Assembly: GCA_045130875.1 (NCBI GenBank)
Contig: JBGUQI010000018.1
Location: 7,508-71,507, forward strand
Direction of reading: 5' to 3'
Length of the DNA: 64,000 nucleotides
Source: Bacilli bacterium
GTDB taxonomy: Bacteria; Bacillota_I; Bacilli_A; RFN20; CAG-826
Positions 8,432 through 48,921 of the stretch are shown here, in pieces. The notes under the pieces are model-generated. The model was not told the DNA's origin and made no database searches. It saw nothing but the letters and a program-made list of their open reading frames with translations. Position 1 is the stretch's first letter. Each line of letters starts with the position of its first letter. The position numbers were made by a program, and so were the translations under genes.

Positions 8432-8546
8432 TTGTTGCCAAAAATCTCTTATATAAATATAATAATCCTGCTCATAAATCGAGCTACCTTACAGCTTTTT
8501 AAGCCTTACAGATCATTTATTCAATTAATTATTTAGGAGGTAGTTT

Positions 8547-8825
8547 ATGAGCAAATTAATTGATTCCCACTTGATAGGGCAAAATATCAAGAAACTTCGT
8601 CTAAGTCATAACTGGACTCAGGAGTTCTTAGCCGACAGTATCGGATACTGCGTAAGGACCTTACGCCGTGTCGAAAACGAGGGCACAGATAGAATTGACG
8701 TTGTCAACATCTTCGCCGCCGCCTTCGAGGTATCCGCACTAGACATCCTTCAAGGATGTTTTTTGTTTATTTGGACAATATGTAATAACAGATATCAAAA
8801 TAAGTTTTGTTATCTAAATGATTAA
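8547..8825 (+). CDS. XRE-family helix-turn-helix regulator
   Basis: GGAGG RBS upstream. IGQNIKKLRLSHNWTQEFLADSIGYCVRTLRRVENEG is a classic HTH_XRE sequence. The gene looks G+C-richer than its neighbours. Its 3' tail overlaps the convergent gene. Confidence 0.75.
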   Translation: MSKLIDSHLIGQNIKKLRLSHNWTQEFLADSIGYCVRTLRRVENEGTDRIDVVNIFAAAFEVSALDILQGCFLFIWTICNNRYQNKFCYLND

Positions 8826-9399
8826 TAGTTTTGATACCCTGGGGATAAGCAAAATCACCTTTCACTAATGTGGATATGGTGTTATCGCTATTCAAAGTGG
8901 TGAAAGATAAGAATAATGATGAATCTAATGATCTAGATACCATGTTAACTTGGTATTTATTATTATCCACAGGAGCGGTGGTATCGATATCTTCAATCGT
9001 GGTTTCTATCTGATAATCATCAATGCTTAAGTTATTATTTCTAAAAGCACTAATGTCTATGGGAATATTAAAGAAAAATGCATTATTTTCATCATTTAAG
9101 GCGAGTTTTAGCGAGTTTTCTTCATATTCTATCGCAATTATTGACTCTGCTTGATAAGGAGTTCCTAGCTCTTCTAAAGCATCATTTGAGAACTTGATGA
9201 TGTTGTCATAGACCTCACTAATGGTCTCATCCATGACATAGGGATCATCACTCTTTTGATTGGTTTTGGTAATCTTTGGTAAGAAAGCAAAGAAAATAAT
9301 TAAATCAATAACAAAAGAGACGCAGAGAATAATGATAATAATTAATCTCTTGTTGGCTTTCTTTTCTTTTTCTTGAGAGATATTTGACTGTTTGTCCAT
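8767..9399 (-). CDS. membrane-anchored hypothetical protein (N-terminal TM helix)
   Basis: ORF with an ATG at 9399 (the track begins one TTG codon earlier). It has a basic N-terminus followed by the hydrophobic stretch LIIIIILCVSFVIDLIIFFAFL. Confidence 0.65.
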   Translation of the reverse strand: MDKQSNISQEKEKKANKRLIIIIILCVSFVIDLIIFFAFLPKITKTNQKSDDPYVMDETISEVYDNIIKFSNDALEELGTPYQAESIIAIEYEENSLKLALNDENNAFFFNIPIDISAFRNNNLSIDDYQIETTIEDIDTTAPVDNNKYQVNMVSRSLDSSLFLSFTTLNSDNTISTLVKGDFAYPQGIKTINHLDNKTYFDICYYILSK

Positions 9400-9429
9400 C
9401 AACTATTATTTATAATACCTTAAATATAC

Positions 9430-9990
9430 AAAAAAAGGCATTGTCGGTCTTCACCATACAACACTTACTCTAATCTGTTATTCATACACGCACAATCTAG
9501 GCTGAGTAATAGGGAGCGACCCTAATACTTCTAGAGGGGGTATTTCTACCGAACTACGGGAGGAATCGATATCCTCCAACTTTCAGAGAGCTTCAGCAAG
9601 AAAAGATCCATTACGTAAGCTATTCTTGGCATTCTCCTACTCGCGCCTACCAAAGTGGTTATAGGTGATTACTCACCATCAAGCCAGACACTTCTTTTGA
9701 GACCGTAGATAGTAGTTTCTCACGCTACTATCTTAACGGGGGATACATTGCTGCAGAGCCTCTTATCGTGCCCTCTCGGGTAGCTATTTACATCGAAGAG
9801 CGTATTGCGCCACCAACCAAAGCGATCCATTACAACCGGGTACCATTTAGGTCTCGTCTATAGTGCAGTATCCCACACTATATTCTCTTTTGGCTGGGCC
9901 CCAGCCACTGTGCAACAATGACTTCACTGGGTTCCAATGCACATATACTATAACCTCCTGTCAATAGGAGTGGTGAGGACAAGAAATGTC
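9430..9990 (-). ncRNA. large (~560 nt) structured non-coding RNA candidate; ROOL/GOLLD-size class or novel. The 5' end is uncertain
   Basis: No ORF of 60 aa or more in any frame, and G+C-richer than the flanks. There are at least 7 perfect local hairpins. Two loops are GNRA tetraloops only when read on the minus strand. A hairpin plus U7 tract lies at the minus-strand 3' end (9430-9463). Confidence 0.55.
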
Positions 9991-10020
9991 CGATTAAAAA
10001 AAGTTTTGTAAAATATGAAG

Positions 10021-10035
10021 TTGTAAAAAATACAA
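10021..10035. promoter_or_regulatory. palindromic operator candidate TTGTA-N5-TACAA upstream of the XRE gene
   Basis: TTGTAAAAAATACAA is a perfect 5-nt inverted repeat with a 5-nt A spacer. A related half-site TTGTAAAAT lies at 10006-10014, and a near-identical copy lies at 10436-10449. Confidence 0.3.
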
Positions 10036-10055
10036 ACTAAATGTATTGTTATGTT

Positions 10056-10343
10056 ATGAACTTAGGTGAAAGATTTAAAAAGTATCGCAAGAAAGCTGGA
10101 TTGACTCAAAAGGAAGCCGCTCAAGTAATTGGTATTAATAGCTATCAATTAGGTAATTATGAGACCAATAGAAGCGAACCGAGTATCACAATCTTAAAAA
10201 AGATGAGCAATGTTTATGGTGTATCTATAGACACTTTAGTGGGAAACAACACATTACCAGAAGAAATCGTTGACATTAAAGAAAAAGATAATTTGGAACA
10301 AATTATTAAAGAGTTTGTCCAATATTGTGAAGGCAAAAAATAA
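10056..10343 (+). CDS. XRE-family helix-turn-helix regulator
   Basis: MNLGERFKKYRKKAGLTQKEAAQVIGINSYQLGNYETNRSEPS is a canonical HTH_XRE sequence. The track starts 5 codons earlier, at 10041. Confidence 0.8.
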   Translation: MNLGERFKKYRKKAGLTQKEAAQVIGINSYQLGNYETNRSEPSITILKKMSNVYGVSIDTLVGNNTLPEEIVDIKEKDNLEQIIKEFVQYCEGKK

Positions 10344-10398: not shown

Positions 10399-10435
10399 TT
10401 TATATATCATCTTAACAAATAAAAAATACAAACAA

Positions 10436-10449
10436 TGTAAAAAATACAA
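10436..10449. promoter_or_regulatory. second copy of the TGTA-N5-TACA operator-like palindrome, upstream of the small hydrophobic ORF
   Basis: TGTAAAAAATACAA. An additional AAAAAATACAA lies at 10421-10431. Confidence 0.3.
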
Positions 10450-10556
10450 TTAATTTGTTTTATTTTTGTGTTTTTTATGTAAGAATATTAATGCCGTTAA
10501 CGCGGTGGGATGCGTCTCTCTTATCCTCTTTGCACTCGTAAGGAGGTAATAAGGAA

Positions 10557-19241: not shown

Positions 19242-19322
19242 TTTCATTTATAACTTATGCTGCGTGTTACGTGCATTATTAATATATAATAAAAAGCGAT
19301 TAATACATTGGAGGACAACTCT

Positions 19323-22300
19323 ATGAAAAGCCATGGCAAAAATATAATGATGCTCATTTCTCTTTCACTTGCTCTTGGGATTACAGGGTGTGGTGCACAA
19401 CCCAAACACCATTCTCATGAGATTGATGAAAGATATGTCGATGAAGAAGGCAATTTAACAGAACCAATTGATATTGCCACTCATAGTGAAGATGAGGGAC
19501 CGCATCAAGAATACAACAAAGGAATTGTACTAGTTAAAACTCCAGAAGAAGTTGATAAGGATTCTTTAAAACTTGATATTCAATCCGTTGAAAGAATTTA
19601 CCCTCAATCATCTTGGCACAAAATTATTTTAGACGGTGAAGATACGGTTTCTGCTGTTAAATATTTAAGAAGCACAAATATGTTCCAAAAGGTAGACTAT
19701 GACTATGTCATGGGTGTTTCTGCGGAAATTGAGTCAATCGATGTGTCGAGCAATCCATACGCTTCTGATTTATCTTACCTTGATACTATGTGTATCAACC
19801 AAGCATGGGGATATGGCTCTCAAAATCATTTGGGAGGACCTAATGGCGGTGGTTCATCCGATGTCATCATCGCTGTAATAGATACTGGTGTCGACTATAA
19901 CCATATTGATTTAAGAAACAATATTTGGACCAACACTGGCGAAATTCCAAATAATGGCATCGATGATGATAATAACGGATATATAGATGATGTTCGTGGT
20001 TGGGATTGCGTTAATGAAGATAATGAACCGTTAGACGATAATGGTCACGGCACTCATGTTGCCGGAATTGTGGCAGCTGAAAACAATTATGTTGGCACAG
20101 TTGGTGTTGCTTTCAACTGCAAAGTCATGCCCATTAAAGCAGGAAACAGTAGCGGCTATTTTATTAATTCAGATATTGCGCAAGCAATTCAATATGCCTA
20201 TATGAATGGTGCATCTGTTATTAATATGTCTTTTGGCGGATCATCCATTTCTCTTGCAATCGAAGATGCGTTGGTTGATGCTTATAACCAATGTATTTTG
20301 GTTGCAGCGGCTGGCAACAATTCATTGTGTAATCAACCCGATTGTATTGCACATCTTCAAAAAATGCCGTTTTATCCAGCGGCATTGTCTTATGTTATTG
20401 GCGTCATGTCTTGCAACAATGAAGGAACATGCATTTCATCCTTCTCTAATTTCGATCACTACCCATTTAATAAATATGAATATGAAGTATATGCATGTGG
20501 TGAACAGATAATATCTTCTTGGCCAAACAATAAGTATGCTAGATGTAGCGGCACTTCAATGGCGGCTCCGGTTGTCTCGGGTATTGCTGCATTATTAAGA
20601 AGCGCTTATCCAGATAGAGAAACGCATAGTCACAAATTTATTCAATCACAAATTGTTAATACAGGACCTATTTTGGATTTACAAAGGGTGGCCAATGCAT
20701 ATGATGCTTTAACAAAAGTTCCCACCCCATCGCTTAAACTTTACGATTATTATATTTTTGATAATAAATCCATAAATTCTTCTAATAACAATAATGGCAT
20801 TATTGATTCTGGCGAAACCATTCGAATAGCAATAGAACTTCAAAATAGGGGTGGTGTTGCTTCTGATGTCACTGCTTCAATTGATACAATTAGAAATGGA
20901 GATCCAAATCTTGTCGATCCAAACATCGAAATAATTAATGACACATTACATCTTAGTGATGTTGGAACATATTCAGTCAGGGATTGTGGAAAAATATATG
21001 AAAACAACAGCGTAGTTGGAACAAATCTTTATTTTGAGGTAACAATTTCAAATAATTGCCCGCACAATTATTTAATAAATATTAACTTGCATTTAAGTTA
21101 TGAAAACGGTCTTCAAAACGATGGAATAACTTATAGAACTGATAATACCATTTCTTTAAGTGTGGCTAACGGTGTCTATGTACCAATTACAATCAGTCAA
21201 GACATGGTGTTTTCTGGAGATAAAAAATACATTGTTTCAGATACTGTTGTAATTGGTTCGGGTGTGAATGTAACGTTTGAAGCTGGGGCCGACATTGTTT
21301 TTTATGAAAACAGTCAATCCTACATTGATAATCTATATAACAGCCCACGAATCAATGGAAGAAATGCGGAATCGCTTTCATTTATTGGAACAGCTGAAAA
21401 GCCAATAACAATTCATGTTTCTGAAATGTTTGAAGGATATGTTGGGTTTATTTTTGGCGCCACAACTTTTGATTACTGCAACATTATTAACATCGGATTA
21501 AGTACGCAGAATTTTTTGCATTCATCGGTTGAATTCCAGAGAAAATTAACAAGCGATAGAGTGCTTTCGTATAATCAAGGACAAGGAAACTCGAGCGGTG
21601 CACAAGTTGATGTCAGCTTCGCTCAATATTCTATCTTTAAAAATACACACTCAAAATTTGTAAACATCAATGTAACAGAAATGAGGAATTGTGTTTATTA
21701 TTTTGATTATTACAACGATGGAAATGGTGGAATTAATTATTCGTACAATAATTTATACATAGCTACAAAAAGCGATTTCACTTCATGCTTCAACATCTTA
21801 CAAATGGGTGCAAGCAGATCTTATGGTGATGCTTATATATATGATTTTAATACAAGAAAACTTGCTGATTTGCCAACACTAAAATTGAATAGTTATTCAG
21901 AAAATCCATATCTCTTTGGATTGTTTAAGGAGAAGGCGACCACTTTAGCTCCAGGCCATACTTATGTTGAAGAAAATGCGACAGAAGTTAATAAAGTTTG
22001 GCCTTTTATTAAAAACATTAGTATTCAGGATTCTAATGGTGAGCCAACAAATGTTGTGGGTGTTGGCGAGTATACGATTTCAATTGAATTTAATAGAAAT
22101 ATGAATACTTCTAAAGAAATAACTGTTGGTTATGGAACAATTGAACCATATTTTGATTATGTTATTGATGGAAGTTACGTTGTCGACAACATTTGGACTG
22201 GAACTTTTGAGAATAAAGCCGTTATTGAAAATGGCACACAATTTTTGAGGGTGGCTCACGCATTTGCAACTGTCGATGGTTTTGATATGGAATGTGTTAA

Positions 22301-23141
22301 TAATGGGCAATATTTCTCTTTCGATATTGATAAAACAAATGCATTATCAATGACTTTACAAGCCAATCCAGGGAACGAAGGCATTGAATTGATGTGGGCG
22401 CAAGATGATTATGATACTTTAATGGGATATAACATCTATCGTTCAACATCAAAAGATGGGAACTATTCTAAAATAAATCCTTCAATTATTCCTGCTGGTG
22501 AAAATACATATCTAGATGATAGTTGTGAACCAGGTCAAACATATTGGTATACATTTACTGTAGTTTTGAGTGATTTTAGTGAATCTGCACCAGCGGGTAA
22601 AGTTTCAGCTACTGCAAGAGATACTATCGCGCCAACAATTTATCACACGCCAGTAAATCAGGGATATGCCAATAATAATTTGACCATATCTTGTACTATA
22701 AGTGATAACATAGCGGTGCAATCTGCTACGTTATATTATCGAACAACAGGCGATAGTGAATGGAAGTCTCTGACAATGATGAAAGCGAATAATCGTTTCA
22801 GCGCGGTCATTTTTGGTAGTGAAGTGACAATGGATGGACTCCAATATTACATCTCCGCTACTGATGGCACCAATACAGTGACGCGTGGAAGTGCGGAATC
22901 ACCATTCACAATCGTTGTTAAAGATCCATCTACATTGAATAATATGGGTGATGTTGATGGTGATGGTGTTATCACCACAAAAGATGCTTTGATGATTATT
23001 AAAGCCATCAATGATGAAATCATTTTGACAGACGATCAATTCCATCGCGCGGATTTAAATGGAAATAATGAATTATCATCATCTGAAGCCTTGAGAATTC
23101 TTCAATATGTCAATGGCAACGTCACTACATTAGAAATGTAA
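19323..23141 (+). CDS. subtilisin-like S8 serine protease; lipoprotein with Fn3-like module and C-terminal dockerin
   Basis: GGAGGA RBS, then ATG at 19323. Lipobox LALGITGC. Catalytic triad motifs VIDTGVDYNH, HGTHVAG and SGTSMAAPVVSG. Dockerin at the C-terminus. Confidence 0.9.
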   Translation: MKSHGKNIMMLISLSLALGITGCGAQPKHHSHEIDERYVDEEGNLTEPIDIATHSEDEGPHQEYNKGIVLVKTPEEVDKDSLKLDIQSVERIYPQSSWHKIILDGEDTVSAVKYLRSTNMFQKVDYDYVMGVSAEIESIDVSSNPYASDLSYLDTMCINQAWGYGSQNHLGGPNGGGSSDVIIAVIDTGVDYNHIDLRNNIWTNTGEIPNNGIDDDNNGYIDDVRGWDCVNEDNEPLDDNGHGTHVAGIVAAENNYVGTVGVAFNCKVMPIKAGNSSGYFINSDIAQAIQYAYMNGASVINMSFGGSSISLAIEDALVDAYNQCILVAAAGNNSLCNQPDCIAHLQKMPFYPAALSYVIGVMSCNNEGTCISSFSNFDHYPFNKYEYEVYACGEQIISSWPNNKYARCSGTSMAAPVVSGIAALLRSAYPDRETHSHKFIQSQIVNTGPILDLQRVANAYDALTKVPTPSLKLYDYYIFDNKSINSSNNNNGIIDSGETIRIAIELQNRGGVASDVTASIDTIRNGDPNLVDPNIEIINDTLHLSDVGTYSVRDCGKIYENNSVVGTNLYFEVTISNNCPHNYLININLHLSYENGLQNDGITYRTDNTISLSVANGVYVPITISQDMVFSGDKKYIVSDTVVIGSGVNVTFEAGADIVFYENSQSYIDNLYNSPRINGRNAESLSFIGTAEKPITIHVSEMFEGYVGFIFGATTFDYCNIINIGLSTQNFLHSSVEFQRKLTSDRVLSYNQGQGNSSGAQVDVSFAQYSIFKNTHSKFVNINVTEMRNCVYYFDYYNDGNGGINYSYNNLYIATKSDFTSCFNILQMGASRSYGDAYIYDFNTRKLADLPTLKLNSYSENPYLFGLFKEKATTLAPGHTYVEENATEVNKVWPFIKNISIQDSNGEPTNVVGVGEYTISIEFNRNMNTSKEITVGYGTIEPYFDYVIDGSYVVDNIWTGTFENKAVIENGTQFLRVAHAFATVDGFDMECVNNGQYFSFDIDKTNALSMTLQANPGNEGIELMWAQDDYDTLMGYNIYRSTSKDGNYSKINPSIIPAGENTYLDDSCEPGQTYWYTFTVVLSDFSESAPAGKVSATARDTIAPTIYHTPVNQGYANNNLTISCTISDNIAVQSATLYYRTTGDSEWKSLTMMKANNRFSAVIFGSEVTMDGLQYYISATDGTNTVTRGSAESPFTIVVKDPSTLNNMGDVDGDGVITTKDALMIIKAINDEIILTDDQFHRADLNGNNELSSSEALRILQYVNGNVTTLEM
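22947..23138 (+). other. type-I-like dockerin module (two Ca-binding repeats) at the C-terminus of the S8 protease
   Basis: GDVDGDGVITTKDALMIIKAIN ... ADLNGNNELSSSEALRILQYVNG is a duplicated EF-hand-like dockerin segment. Confidence 0.8.
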
Positions 23142-30098: not shown

Positions 30099-32627
30099 AT
30101 GAATCTAAAACTATTCGAACACAACGGATTTGCTTTAATTGAAAAATACTCTTTTAATGAAAAATATTCTTCGTATGTTTTTTCTGTTGAGGATTTTGTT
30201 GTAATTATTGATAACTGTTTTGATGCTGAAAATGAAAAACACAACTTTTTCAACTATTCGAAGTATTGCGAGATGCAAAACAAATACATGCTCTCCAGTA
30301 GATGCTTGCTTCGATTCAATTTGTCTGGCAACACTTCTAAATTGATAGAAGAGATCATCGATTTAATTAAAAACCACAGCATAAAAGATAATGATTATTT
30401 AGATGATGGAGGCTCTTTTTCTGATGCTCATATTGATAACACTCCTTTAGAATCCTCTTTTGAAGAAATATTTGCTAATGCTTATGGCAATGAAGCGTTG
30501 GAGTGTTTGAGAAAAGAAGTTTCTATTTCGTATGGGGGAAACAAAAACTACTTCATCGACTACGTAATAGAAACAAAAAGTGGAAATTTTGCATTTGAAG
30601 AAAACGGAGTTAATTATCATCACCCATTAATTGTTGGCAAAAAGAGGTATAAAGAATTATTAGATAAACAAAATACCATCATGTTGCTTGGCTATAAGAT
30701 ATATCGTTTTTCTACCGAGAACTTGCATTTTAAAGATAAGGTTGTCGAAGAGCTTAAGTCTTTTTTACCAGATAAAAAAGAATTTATACCAATAATTATT
30801 TTCAAGAATAGTAGAGGTATGGAGTTGTATAGCCATCAAACCGATATTCTTAAACAATTAGATATTGATAGGTTGAGTGGCAAGACGACTTCCTTGGTTG
30901 TTATTCCTACAGCTGCCGGAAAATCTGAAATATGTATTACTGATTTAGAGAAGGAATACATTAAAATGGAAGTTAAGAGAGTTTTAATCATGGTTCCTTC
31001 TTTAAAGATTAAAGAAGATTGGTTAGAAAGAATAAAAGTTATCAAAAAATATTACGAAGTCATTGATGTAATGTTTTACAACAACGTTTTTATTCATCGC
31101 AATGAGCTGTCTCAAGATTATTATGATTATATTGTTTTTGATGAAGCTCACCACGCTCAAGCATCTAACTGCAAAGCGACCATCCAATATTTTACCCCTA
31201 AATATTTAATTGGGTTGACCGCTACCGATGAGAGATTGGATAACCAAAAATTAGAAGAAATATTTGGCAACTATGAAGTCAAATTGACTTTAAAAGAAGC
31301 CATAGATAAAGATGTCATTACAAACATTAGAGCCTACCGTTTGGAGAGCAACATCAACTTAAAAGAAGTTAGATATAATGGCAAAGATTATAATTATTCT
31401 GATTTAGAAAGAACTCTTGTTATTGATTCCAGAAATGAATTGATTGCAGATCTATTAAATAAATATTTTCAACCAAAACAAAACTTTTACAAACAAGGTA
31501 TTATTTTCTGCGTTAATACTGCTCATACAAAAAAAGTGGCAAAATTATTAAAAGATAAGGGTTTAACAGCAGAAGCTGTTTATGGTGGAAATTCTAAAAA
31601 CGACAAAGTATTTGAACAATATAAAAACAAAGAGGTTCAGTTTTTGTGTTCTTGCCAATTAATCTCTGAAGGGTGGGACTCCCCACAAACAGAAGTGGTA
31701 GTGATGGCGAGACCGACGTTATCCAAAGTTTTGTACCTTCAACAGATTGGACGCGGCTTACGGAAGTATCCAGGTAAAGAATGTTTGTATCTTATTGATG
31801 TTGTTGACAATTATTCTTCAAAATTAATTCCATGGAATTTTAATTCATTGTTCCATATATCAACCTATTCCCCATTTATGGGTGTTAAAAACAACGATCA
31901 AGATTATTTGACAATATTTGGATTGTCTGAACATGAGATTGCAATGAAAGAAATAGATATTTTTAGCTTTGAAGAAAAATATAAAGACTATCTATCTCTA
32001 GAGCAGGCCGCCAGAGAATTATTTGTTGGTACTCAAACACTTAATACTTGGAACAAAAACAAAAAATATGCGTCTTTGTATCTTCCAATTGGTAGTAAAG
32101 TTGTTCCCTATTTTTCAGCAAATGATATTTCAAACATAAGATCTGACAAGAATTTAAGCATCCATACAGATGAGACGATACTTAATGATTTCATTGATTT
32201 TATCAATGAAAATACTCTTACTTTCTCGTTTAAATTGGTTTTTCTCATCTACTCACTTCTCCTCGCTGATAAAGAAGGCAACATCAATTTGGATATGTTA
32301 AGCAAGAAGTATGCGGATTTTTATCTTTCTAGATTAAATAAAGGTCTGCCGGTCGATAAAAAGAATTGCATATATAACAAAGACAATCTTTTAAATGAAT
32401 CATTTATTAAAAAGAGCCTATTAGATAATCCCTTTGAAAAATTTGAAAGAAAAAGATTCTTCTACCATTCAAAGGATTTAAATATTGTTTCTTTCAATTT
32501 TGCCCTTTGGACAAAAATGAATGATTCAATAAAAAAAGATATAATGGATAAAGAAATGAAATTTTTGAAAGAATATTATTCAAAATACGGAGGATATGAC
32601 AATGGATATCAATTCAAAATATTATGA
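30099..32627 (+). CDS. SF2 DEAD/DEAH-type helicase (type III restriction res-like) with an N-terminal Vsr/DUF559-like nuclease-fold module and a C-terminal HTH-like/unknown domain
   Basis: N-terminus FIDYVIETKSGNFAFEENGVNYHH. Helicase motifs PTAAGKSE, FDEAHHAQ, GLTATDER and QQIGRGLRK. The ~250-aa C-terminal region is unassigned. Confidence 0.8.
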   Translation: MNLKLFEHNGFALIEKYSFNEKYSSYVFSVEDFVVIIDNCFDAENEKHNFFNYSKYCEMQNKYMLSSRCLLRFNLSGNTSKLIEEIIDLIKNHSIKDNDYLDDGGSFSDAHIDNTPLESSFEEIFANAYGNEALECLRKEVSISYGGNKNYFIDYVIETKSGNFAFEENGVNYHHPLIVGKKRYKELLDKQNTIMLLGYKIYRFSTENLHFKDKVVEELKSFLPDKKEFIPIIIFKNSRGMELYSHQTDILKQLDIDRLSGKTTSLVVIPTAAGKSEICITDLEKEYIKMEVKRVLIMVPSLKIKEDWLERIKVIKKYYEVIDVMFYNNVFIHRNELSQDYYDYIVFDEAHHAQASNCKATIQYFTPKYLIGLTATDERLDNQKLEEIFGNYEVKLTLKEAIDKDVITNIRAYRLESNINLKEVRYNGKDYNYSDLERTLVIDSRNELIADLLNKYFQPKQNFYKQGIIFCVNTAHTKKVAKLLKDKGLTAEAVYGGNSKNDKVFEQYKNKEVQFLCSCQLISEGWDSPQTEVVVMARPTLSKVLYLQQIGRGLRKYPGKECLYLIDVVDNYSSKLIPWNFNSLFHISTYSPFMGVKNNDQDYLTIFGLSEHEIAMKEIDIFSFEEKYKDYLSLEQAARELFVGTQTLNTWNKNKKYASLYLPIGSKVVPYFSANDISNIRSDKNLSIHTDETILNDFIDFINENTLTFSFKLVFLIYSLLLADKEGNINLDMLSKKYADFYLSRLNKGLPVDKKNCIYNKDNLLNESFIKKSLLDNPFEKFERKRFFYHSKDLNIVSFNFALWTKMNDSIKKDIMDKEMKFLKEYYSKYGGYDNGYQFKIL

Positions 32628-47955: not shown

Positions 47956-48921
47956 ATGATACTACATCAGAAGAAGAAAACATCTTTAAAGATTAAAAGA
48001 ACGATATTTATCGTTAGTTTTCTCGCGCTTTCACTCGCGCATTTTATCGTCTTCTGGCTCTTTATCAATGTCGACACAATTCGATTAACATTCTTTAAAG
48101 CTAATGAATATAACGAAGAGATATTTGTCGGCTTATATAATTACACAAAACAATTTAAAGATATCTTCTTAGGTGAAGATAAAGCCGCACAGAGGAGTTT
48201 CTTTAACTCCTTCCACGCAGTGGGTATTAATATGCTCATCTTACCTATCTCTATCGTCGTGGCGTATGCCTTCTATAAGAAGGTCTATGGTTATTCTTTC
48301 TATAGAATTATATTCTATTTACCATCGGTTATCTCTATCGTCGTCTTAGCCGCGGCATTTAGAGAGATGTTTAGACAATATGATGATGGTACAACGGTTA
48401 TTACTGGTCCTGTCGCCCAGTTATTATCGAGTATCGGTATCAATAAGCAGTGGCTAGACCCCGGAATTGATACAGAGGTGAAGTGGCCACTTATCTATAC
48501 CTTTGCCATCTTAAATGGTATGGGGGCTAATGTCATCTTATTAACTAGTGCGATGAATCGTATTCCTAAGGAATTAAGCGAAGCTTCTAGACTTGATGGT
48601 TGTGGTTTCTTTAGAGAGATGACTCATGTAACCATTCCTCTTATTATGCCGACGATAACCACATGGGTGATGATGATATTTGCCGCAGTATATTCCTTCT
48701 TTATGCAACCGATGTTGATCTTTGAGAACAACTCCGGAAAAGATGGAGCCTTCTTAACCGCACCATGGCAGATCTTTAATTTAGTAGCAGATGCCGGTTT
48801 TGATAAACAGAGATTAATTGGCGCTGCTTGTTTAGGTATTATGCTCACTTTAGTGGTATTACCTCTTAACCTTGCCATGAGAGCGTTACTCAATAGATTT
48901 ACCGCGGAGGTGTCATATTAA
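47956..48921 (+). CDS. carbohydrate ABC transporter permease (MalF/UgpA-type)
   Basis: EAA loop EASRLDGCGFFREMTHVTIPLIMP. Confidence 0.85.
   Translation: MILHQKKKTSLKIKRTIFIVSFLALSLAHFIVFWLFINVDTIRLTFFKANEYNEEIFVGLYNYTKQFKDIFLGEDKAAQRSFFNSFHAVGINMLILPISIVVAYAFYKKVYGYSFYRIIFYLPSVISIVVLAAAFREMFRQYDDGTTVITGPVAQLLSSIGINKQWLDPGIDTEVKWPLIYTFAILNGMGANVILLTSAMNRIPKELSEASRLDGCGFFREMTHVTIPLIMPTITTWVMMIFAAVYSFFMQPMLIFENNSGKDGAFLTAPWQIFNLVADAGFDKQRLIGAACLGIMLTLVVLPLNLAMRALLNRFTAEVSY

Follow-up and report, generated by a model that had tools for sequence, protein, structure and literature searches.

Positions 9425–9955 of a 64,000-nt stretch of Bacilli bacterium DNA (hereafter the window, i. e. the whole stretch that was analysed) very probably encode, on the minus strand, a full-length ROOL RNA, as judged from covariance-model matching and comparison with relatives. 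This RNA adds a further member to a known family and does not represent a new RNA class. Only its context is new: the ROOL subclade to which it belongs is compact and non-phage, and has an XRE-family gene as dedicated neighbour, an invariant inverted repeat at the promoter, and a slot for accessory cargo genes, a combination for which no description was found in the literature consulted. The starting point was an original prediction, made from the letters alone, that pointed to window positions 9430–9990 as an open reading frame (ORF)-free, G+C-enriched and hairpin-dense region, which might harbor a large structured minus-strand noncoding RNA of the ROOL or GOLLD size class, or a novel one.

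The assignment is carried by a scan of the whole window with the Rfam 15 covariance models (cmscan), in which ROOL (RF03087) was the sole family above its gathering score in the 64 kb. The match reaches 206.6 bits against a gathering score of 99.1 (E 3.3e-45) and spans model positions 1–574 of 574, hence it is not truncated. The experimentally characterised ROOL of Ligilactobacillus salivarius (pMP118) obtained 130.4 bits in the same test, less than the window copy. The Infernal search that had been proposed thus recovered ROOL over its full length, with a score twice the gathering value, and the fallback of a novel class gave way to an ordinary Rfam family member. GOLLD, OLE, HEARO, raiA, RNase P, transfer-messenger RNA (tmRNA), and T-box yielded nothing above gathering in the window. 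None of them appeared in a permissive scan (E≤1) over 9200–10200 either, where the only other match was a chance hit to AfaR with 20 bits against a threshold of 100; the GOLLD option was thereby left without any match. ARAGORN found neither tRNA nor tmRNA over the 64 kb. The gap indeed lacks longer ORFs: between 9403 and 10040, no ORF of 40 or more amino acids occurs in any frame, the longest having 38. The G+C content amounts to 0.453 in 9430–9990 and 0.345 window-wide, and only 0.08 % of 531-nt segments reach the value of the ROOL stretch; the hand counts behind the predicted enrichment (29/60 and 18/60) were both exact.

Homologues were gathered via a conserved 5′ motif and fell into two groups, ROOLs on viral contigs and ROOLs in genomes. 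A genome-wide search with the pattern AACCCAGTGAAG-N8-30-GCTGGG gave at least 120 loci; among those listed, 111 were chance matches in unrelated phyla and nine carried ROOL according to nhmmer. The seven ROOLs on viral contigs are only about 45 % identical to the window copy and all lie amid tRNA arrays. By comparison, eight of the nine genomic ROOLs are 64–78 % identical to it, and the metagenome-assembled genomes concerned are labelled Anaeroplasmatales, Erysipelotrichaceae, Bacilli or Bacillales, Roseburia hominis and Sodaliphilus. BLASTN of the ROOL RNA against phage and plasmid collections returned zero matches, because the family is too divergent for BLAST. The nhmmer profile built here likewise missed the L. 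salivarius ROOL, for which the Rfam model was needed.

The window copy and eight relatives form a nine-sequence subclade alignment (A1). When the Rfam consensus structure was projected onto A1 via the window row, 55 pairs showed changes on both sides, a number reached in none of 500 shuffles, while structures slid by 1–3 columns gave 12–29. RNAalifold, run independently on A1, returned the same architecture with 131 pairs, 63 of them compensatory, and put right the registers of four helices that were shifted in the model alignment. The refined structure, which includes two pseudoknots, comprises 136 pairs with 97.2 % of cells paired and 67 covarying pairs, compared with 36–43 % paired and 7–15 covarying pairs in its slid controls. 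Since the refined structure was derived from the same sequences, the projected Rfam structure (55 pairs) provides the unbiased figure. The homologue and covariation check suggested at the outset has therefore delivered 55–67 covarying pairs, and by this alignment the multi-junction fold of ROOL is conserved through compensatory base changes in the relatives.

All eight hairpins of the original prediction are present as perfect local inverted repeats, and four of them turned out to be conserved ROOL helices, i. e. 9859–9882 (P3a, a GGGAUAC-loop hairpin), 9708–9732 (P8), 9664–9677, and 9559–9577. Three others did not hold: 9892–9906 and 9771–9780 are chance local alternatives whose bases belong to the long-range helices P2/P3 and P5, and 9955–9970 lies outside the RNA, in the promoter region upstream, and is not conserved. 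Consequently, one of the two proposed GNRA loops is genuine (GUAA at 9664–9677), while CCC-GAGA-GGG at 9771–9780 is not found in the relatives, which lack the hairpin and carry CCCGAGUAGG instead. A self-kissing role for the 9559–9577 hairpin, whose loop holds 4-nt palindromes in six of nine sequences, was considered and dropped.

The minus-strand orientation had been called correctly. It was argued in part from a hairpin plus U7 at the 3′ end. The U7 tract exists there, whereas the hairpin is the terminal GAAG-loop hairpin, and the 3′ strand of P1 stands between the two. Such a U-tract is present at the ROOL 3′ end in seven of nine relatives, and in one locus (L262) an unrelated insertion begins directly after it. 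P1 itself pairs GCAUUGG (9934–9940) with 9438–9444 and has 6–7 bp according to RNAalifold and pair counts. Three relatives (L123, L094 and L025) possess one more small hairpin on the 5′ side, 20–35 nt upstream of P1 and downstream of the −10 box; its stems differ yet are self-complementary (UUCU/AGAA, CUUG/CAAG, CUCUC-UUCG-GAGAG), and it is missing from the group of the window copy.

In structures solved by cryo-electron microscopy, flat ROOL monomers form an octamer of about 28 nm (in L. salivarius a hexamer) with no protein involved, and a disordered linker lies inside the cage; the cellular function of ROOL is not established. Cage assembly has been demonstrated for the env-120, Enterococcus faecalis, Firmicutes CAG:227 and L. 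salivarius ROOLs. The contact elements were mapped onto the window copy via the env-120 covariation table (Kretsch et al., Suppl. Table 3), and the complementarities that form P10, B4 and the L18 (B6) contact in solved ROOLs are kept (Table 1). P10 matches env-120 349–352/406–409. The UGAG/CUCA complementarity is the equivalent of B4, as which the env-120 pairs 307–309/333–335 are annotated in the same table and which links neighbouring chains in the cage; the sequence fits inter- or intramolecular pairing alike. Similarly, the P18 loop corresponds to L18, which forms with a second L18 the symmetric bridge B6 between two half-cages. GCUGA is the 3′ flank of the linker and UCAGC an internal loop of the P17/P18 arm, comparable to the covarying env-120 pairs 458–461/578–581.

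The window copy differs from env-120 in two stems. P3b is missing, model positions 109–135 being deleted in the window and all eight relatives, and P1 has 6–7 bp across the subclade versus about 17 bp in env-120. In the solved structure, P3b is packed onto P1 and P2, so that its loss together with the shortening of P1 is coherent. This is variation of a subclade and no ground for exclusion from ROOL, given a model score of twice the threshold. As small stem differences alter stoichiometry in other ROOLs, hexamer versus octamer is not predictable for the window RNA. The transcript of about 510 nt would be made from a promoter just upstream, with TATAGT as −10-like box, and would end at the P1 helix and the U7 tract. 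Folded as a flat monomer, it would then self-assemble, free of protein, to a hollow cage of six or eight copies that encloses the 43-nt linker. Taken as a whole, this course from transcript to cage is likely by homology to the characterised ROOLs.

Table 1. Features of the ROOL locus, with positions in the window; for relatives, the content of the interval between ROOL and the XRE gene (slot) is given.
Feature	Position	Strand	Remarks
ROOL RNA gene (RF03087)	9425–9955	minus	full-length covariance-model match; covariation in 8 relatives
Probable transcribed core, ~510 nt	9430–9940	minus	P1 5′ strand to U7 tract (9430–9436); predicted ends
P18 tip GGGUCGCUCCC, loop UCGCU 9515–9519	9512–9522	minus	matches most conserved Rfam block, consensus GGUcGCUCC
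Linker flank with J17/18: GCUGA 9593–9597, UCAGC 9501–9505	9501–9597	minus	both invariant in 9/9
Variable linker loop, 43 nt	9590–9632	minus	31–51 nt in relatives, no sequence conservation (A1)
P10 pseudoknot: UGGC 9683–9686, GCCA 9627–9630 (linker 5′ flank)	9627–9686	minus	9/9 paired, 3/4 positions covary
GNRA-capped hairpin GGUGA-GUAA-UCACC	9664–9677	minus	model hairpin GccgaGAAAucggC; 4/5 pairs covary
B4 kissing loop (L8:J6/8): P8 loop UGAG 9719–9722, CUCA 9698–9701	9698–9722	minus	9/9 paired, 2/4 positions covary
−10-like box TATAGT, candidate ROOL promoter element	9947–9952	minus	TAnAnT box in 8/8 loci with 5′ flank; predicted
Inverted repeat GGACA-N5-TGTCC, then TCAC on ROOL strand	9977–9991		candidate operator at/near −35 position
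XRE1, XRE-family helix-turn-helix gene, convergent with ROOL	8547–8825	plus	Pfam HTH_3; conserved part ends ~8770
211-aa predicted membrane protein gene in slot	8767–9399	minus	starts 30 nt past U-tract, ROOL strand
XRE2, second XRE-family gene, divergent from ROOL	10041–10343	plus	Pfam HTH_3 4.6e-15
Slot in L134 (92 % identical)			211-aa gene and RelB/Fic pair; 33-nt direct repeats of XRE terminator hairpin on both sides
Slot in L262			211-aa gene and Phd-type antitoxin gene, inserted directly after U-tract
Slot in L256			80-aa gene without assigned function
Slot in L261			446-aa gene without assigned function
Slot in L265			AAA/STAND-like ATPase gene after XRE1; contig ends before any ROOL

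Upstream of the RNA, the conserved inverted repeat is followed after 16–20 nt by a TAnAnT box, which in the window ends 7 nt upstream of P1. If TATAGT served as −10 element, the transcription start would fall at about 9940, directly at P1, and the resulting RNA would approach the 520 nt of L. salivarius ROOL. TTGACA at 9959–9964 was rejected as −35 box, because its partner at 17-nt spacing falls inside P1 and a start there would remove the P1 5′ strand. The repeat core is invariant in all 12 subclade loci with 5′ flank, the window included, whereas the surrounding sequence is not conserved, and 9977–9991 is the sole exact copy in the 64 kb. The stem of the repeat is invariant while true RNA helices nearby covary, and the outer bases of its left arm vary without compensation. 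Such a pattern suits recognition of DNA by a protein more than it suits an RNA hairpin. In the P0003 lineage, a second GGACA-N5-TGTCC copy is located about 150 nt upstream of the XRE gene (L256 1378–1392; L257 715; L258 72; L259 70; L260 122). There, the second repeat is followed by TTGATT-N6-TATAAA, resembling TTGACA-N6-TATAGT at the ROOL promoter of the window. A scan of viral contigs with the inverted-repeat pattern gave at least 120 chance matches, none of them with ROOL among the matches listed. Conceivably, a helix-turn-helix (HTH) protein binds the repeat and controls ROOL transcription, with XRE1 as the obvious candidate.

XRE1 recurs beside ROOL from both directions of search. Homologues with 54–68 % identity lie directly 3′ of ROOL and convergent to it in four relatives (L096, L123, L094 and L025), whose remaining neighbours all differ (ZIP/HMA, M48 peptidase, SDR, RimP, AAA_14 ATPase). 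Starting from the protein, close XRE1 relatives made up only five clusters among the 5.8 billion proteins searched, and ROOL was downstream and convergent in all five retrieved contigs with enough flank (L262, L256, L261, L263 and L264). A metagenome scan with XRE1 gave two near-identical loci only. In tblastn against plasmids and phages, XRE1 found merely generic HTH matches of about 40 % in Proteobacteria and none in phages. Hence, the HTH gene next to the L. salivarius ROOL is not a close homologue, in agreement with BLASTP, which detected no similarity between the two.

Several further observations concern the XRE genes. The last conserved codons of XRE1 (LDILQGCFLF; LDILxGCFLF in the family) encode a hairpin, GACATCC-N5-GGATGT, with a T-run at 8741–8761, which resembles an intrinsic terminator and is also found in L123, L094, L025, L096, L262 and L263. 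Beyond this hairpin, the XRE1 tails are unconserved and differ in length, as would be expected if transcripts usually stopped short of the stop codon. The gene is preceded at 8435–8463 by a strong promoter-like site, TTGCCA-17-TATAAT. Its leader (about 8455–8545) starts with AATCnnGCTC...GAGCGAATCAA, a conserved small hairpin, as in L096, L263, L261, L265 and L256; next comes, at the ribosome-binding site, AGAGATCAATTATTAGGAGG as a further conserved block. Hairpin and block could be an autoregulatory element. One of the relatives, L094 (contig CAVIJE010000014.1), is labelled Sodaliphilus sp. (Bacteroidales) and nonetheless carries a Bacillota-type ROOL and XRE1 pair beside rimP, which reflects either mis-binning or horizontal transfer of the module. 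XRE2, in turn, occurs only in the near-identical loci L134 and L262, and the upstream genes of other relatives are unrelated; it is a local neighbour outside the conserved module. Three TGTAAAAAATACAA-like copies bracket it, one just upstream of its start (10022–10037) and two downstream (10419–10433 and 10437–10450), an arrangement repeated in L134. These copies are possible XRE2 operators.

The interval between XRE1 and ROOL is variable. In L123, L094, L025 and L263, merely 7–50 nt separate the conserved end of the XRE gene from the ROOL 3′ end, and in other loci the interval is occupied by genes of different kinds (Table 1). In the window it holds the 211-aa gene, which is not present in most relatives. 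Between the window and L134, its codons differ synonymously in 38 cases and non-synonymously in 19, and third positions account for 46 of the 65 differences, which marks it as a real gene. Its product matched nothing in Pfam, PADLOC or PHROG. The picture of an accessory islet with XRE regulators, as drawn in the original prediction, was therefore broadly right, and the toxin-like character given to this ORF was not borne out by any detectable toxin signature. In L134, a RelB-like and Fic-like pair (PADLOC candidate PDC-S04, 1e-44) sits between XRE1 and the 211-aa gene, the flanking direct repeats being located at 647–679 and 1767–1799, which suggests that the XRE1 terminator hairpin is a recombination or insertion site.

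Taken together, ROOL, the convergent XRE-family gene and the promoter repeat may form a small module in which XRE1 or another HTH protein would bind the repeat and set ROOL transcription. The stretch that separates ROOL from the XRE gene would take up accessory genes, in the window the 211-aa gene, perhaps expressed by read-through from ROOL. That the window belongs to a tRNA-independent, non-phage subclade in which all these parts act together, i. e. an HTH-controlled module and an accessory slot with possible read-through, is a tentative proposal that falls somewhat short of an even chance. Still more speculative, and rather doubtful at present, is the general version according to which the chromosomal ROOL subclade constitutes a regulated three-part module of XRE repressor or activator, operator, and a slot that collects toxin-antitoxin or defence-like cargo. 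A number of points weigh against these proposals and the predicted cage. Both RNA ends and the promoter are predictions from sequence features, and a generic sigma-70 scan found no minus-strand site upstream of ROOL. The present sequence evidence does not single out the protein that would bind 9977–9991, and no second copy of the repeat is found upstream of XRE1 in the window. At one locus (L046), the 7.5 kb downstream of ROOL contain no XRE1 homologue. The HTH gene beside the L. salivarius ROOL is co-directional with it and not detectably homologous to XRE1. Finally, with P3b missing and P1 short, cage assembly and cage size are not assured.

The most substantial alternative concerns the repeat, which might be a 5′ RNA hairpin or a promoter element read by RNA polymerase or an alternative sigma factor instead of a protein operator. 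It could fold as a hairpin of 5–6 bp, its right half (GTCCTCAC) falls at the −35 position, and the missing second copy near XRE1 in the window is compatible with such a role. Yet the invariance of its stem next to covarying RNA helices and the uncompensated changes in its left arm speak against a hairpin, and the repeat is probably not transcribed, because the −10-like box lies downstream of it. The second copy upstream of the XRE gene in the P0003 lineage is moreover the pattern expected of a shared operator. On this balance, the alternative is possible but the less favoured one, and an operator bound by an HTH protein is preferred.

Other explanations of the locus as a whole fare far worse. 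Initially, a long cis-acting 5′ leader of the 211-aa gene had been considered, which would act in a riboswitch-like manner or as an attenuator, and co-transcription by read-through is plausible indeed, as the ORF follows the U-tract on the same strand and has no recognisable own promoter or strong Shine-Dalgarno sequence. However, the same RNA precedes the convergent XRE gene with no gene in between in L123, L094, L025 and L263, different genes fill the slot in L256, L261 and L064, and further genes accompany the 211-aa gene in L134 and L262. Since ROOL is conserved with or without the 211-aa gene, the leader hypothesis fails; the discrete, stable 520-nt RNA of L. salivarius also argues against it, and it is highly improbable. 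Comparably small is the chance that the window is a prophage with a phage-borne, tRNA-linked ROOL. Published ROOLs often occur in prophages near tRNA arrays, and the seven viral-contig ROOLs found here follow this habit, but ROOL is known outside prophages too (Weinberg et al.). The window contains no tRNA, shows no similarity to any phage record, and its RNA is far from the viral type. Phage structural or replication genes were not matched among the window proteins near ROOL; the neighbours are instead a rhamnosidase and other glycosidases, PHP, Macro, SIMPL and HD proteins, the two XRE regulators and a DUF1295 membrane protein. The lack of phage genes and of phage or plasmid similarity makes this ROOL copy chromosomal-looking and tRNA-independent. 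Least probable of all, to the point of being negligible, is a decayed protein-coding gene with incidental hairpins. The region is G+C-richer than typical intergenic DNA, as such a remnant might be, but no frame is kept open in any relative, the substitutions are compensatory over 67 base pairs and not codon-patterned, and the covariance model matches over its full length. An alignment of relatives as a coding gene, named beforehand as what would speak for a pseudogene, did not emerge: the relatives showed covariation and no open frame. A full-length ROOL gene thus stays the preferred reading.

The neighbouring genes further include those for a trehalase-like enzyme and a dockerin-bearing subtilase. 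In the latter (1277 aa, 19308–23141), a type I dockerin domain was recognised at the C-terminus (Pfam 2e-09), a hint that the organism is of a cellulosome type or associated with gut or rumen fibre. Between 25288 and 35291 lies a series of large ORFs that have no family assignment, and in their midst a helicase (30099–32627) related to type I restriction R subunits and RadD, with NCBIfam matches well below cut-off. This region, about 15 kb from ROOL, may be a defence-type island.

As an annotation, the present case is routine, since a standard Rfam scan names the RNA. Only very few natural RNAs, however, are known to form cages without protein as ROOL does, and a compact non-phage variant without P3b and with a short P1 allows one to see, in a naturally occurring case, which parts are required for the cage and what determines hexamer versus octamer formation. 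The recurring XRE gene, the invariant repeat and the cargo slot could show when cells make ROOL, a missing step toward its function. If the proposed module is real, it would couple production of the ROOL cage to a switch of its own as well as to accessory or stress genes, and would provide a first genetic handle, i. e. regulator, operator and co-varying cargo, on what ROOL cages do.

Among known large RNAs, OLE is alike in being a large, highly structured noncoding RNA of Bacillota that homo-oligomerises (as a dimer), but it has an unrelated fold, protein partners (OapA–C etc.) and extremophile hosts. GOLLD is closer in kind as a large ornate bacterial and phage RNA that forms an RNA-only cage and usually resides in a tRNA/prophage context; it differs in sequence and fold, exceeds 800 nt and assembles as a 14-mer. 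The ROOLs used for direct comparison were env-120 from cow rumen (PDB 9MDS) and those of E. faecalis (9J3T) and L. salivarius (9J6Y). The window copy is more compact (about 510–530 nt versus 581 nt on average and 659 nt in env-120), departs from env-120 in P3b and P1, lacks the usual tRNA or phage neighbours, and has a conserved promoter-proximal inverted repeat unlike the known ROOLs; it is, in contrast to these, a ROOL known from sequence alone. The closest parallel in setting is L. salivarius, whose ROOL is a discrete, abundant and stable transcript of 520 nt as mapped, and is followed by an HTH gene for which its authors suggested a role in ROOL expression. According to the literature consulted, ROOL has no known protein partner, and an adjacent HTH gene is noted only there. 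On pMP118 (L267, about 48878–48918), a long A/T-rich inverted repeat, TTATGCAAATAAA ... TTTATTTTGCATAA, is visible by eye about 70–110 nt upstream of ROOL, and may be the counterpart operator for the HTH gene of that locus. The HTH gene of the window is convergent and not detectably homologous to that of L. salivarius (LSL_1884), but in both organisms an HTH regulator gene adjoins ROOL. With the known ROOLs in general, the window copy shares a low-G+C Bacillota host, the full-length model match, the same order of helices and junctions, the P10 pseudoknot, the L8:J6/8 (B4) complementarity, the L18 loop, the GNRA hairpin, and the variable internal linker.

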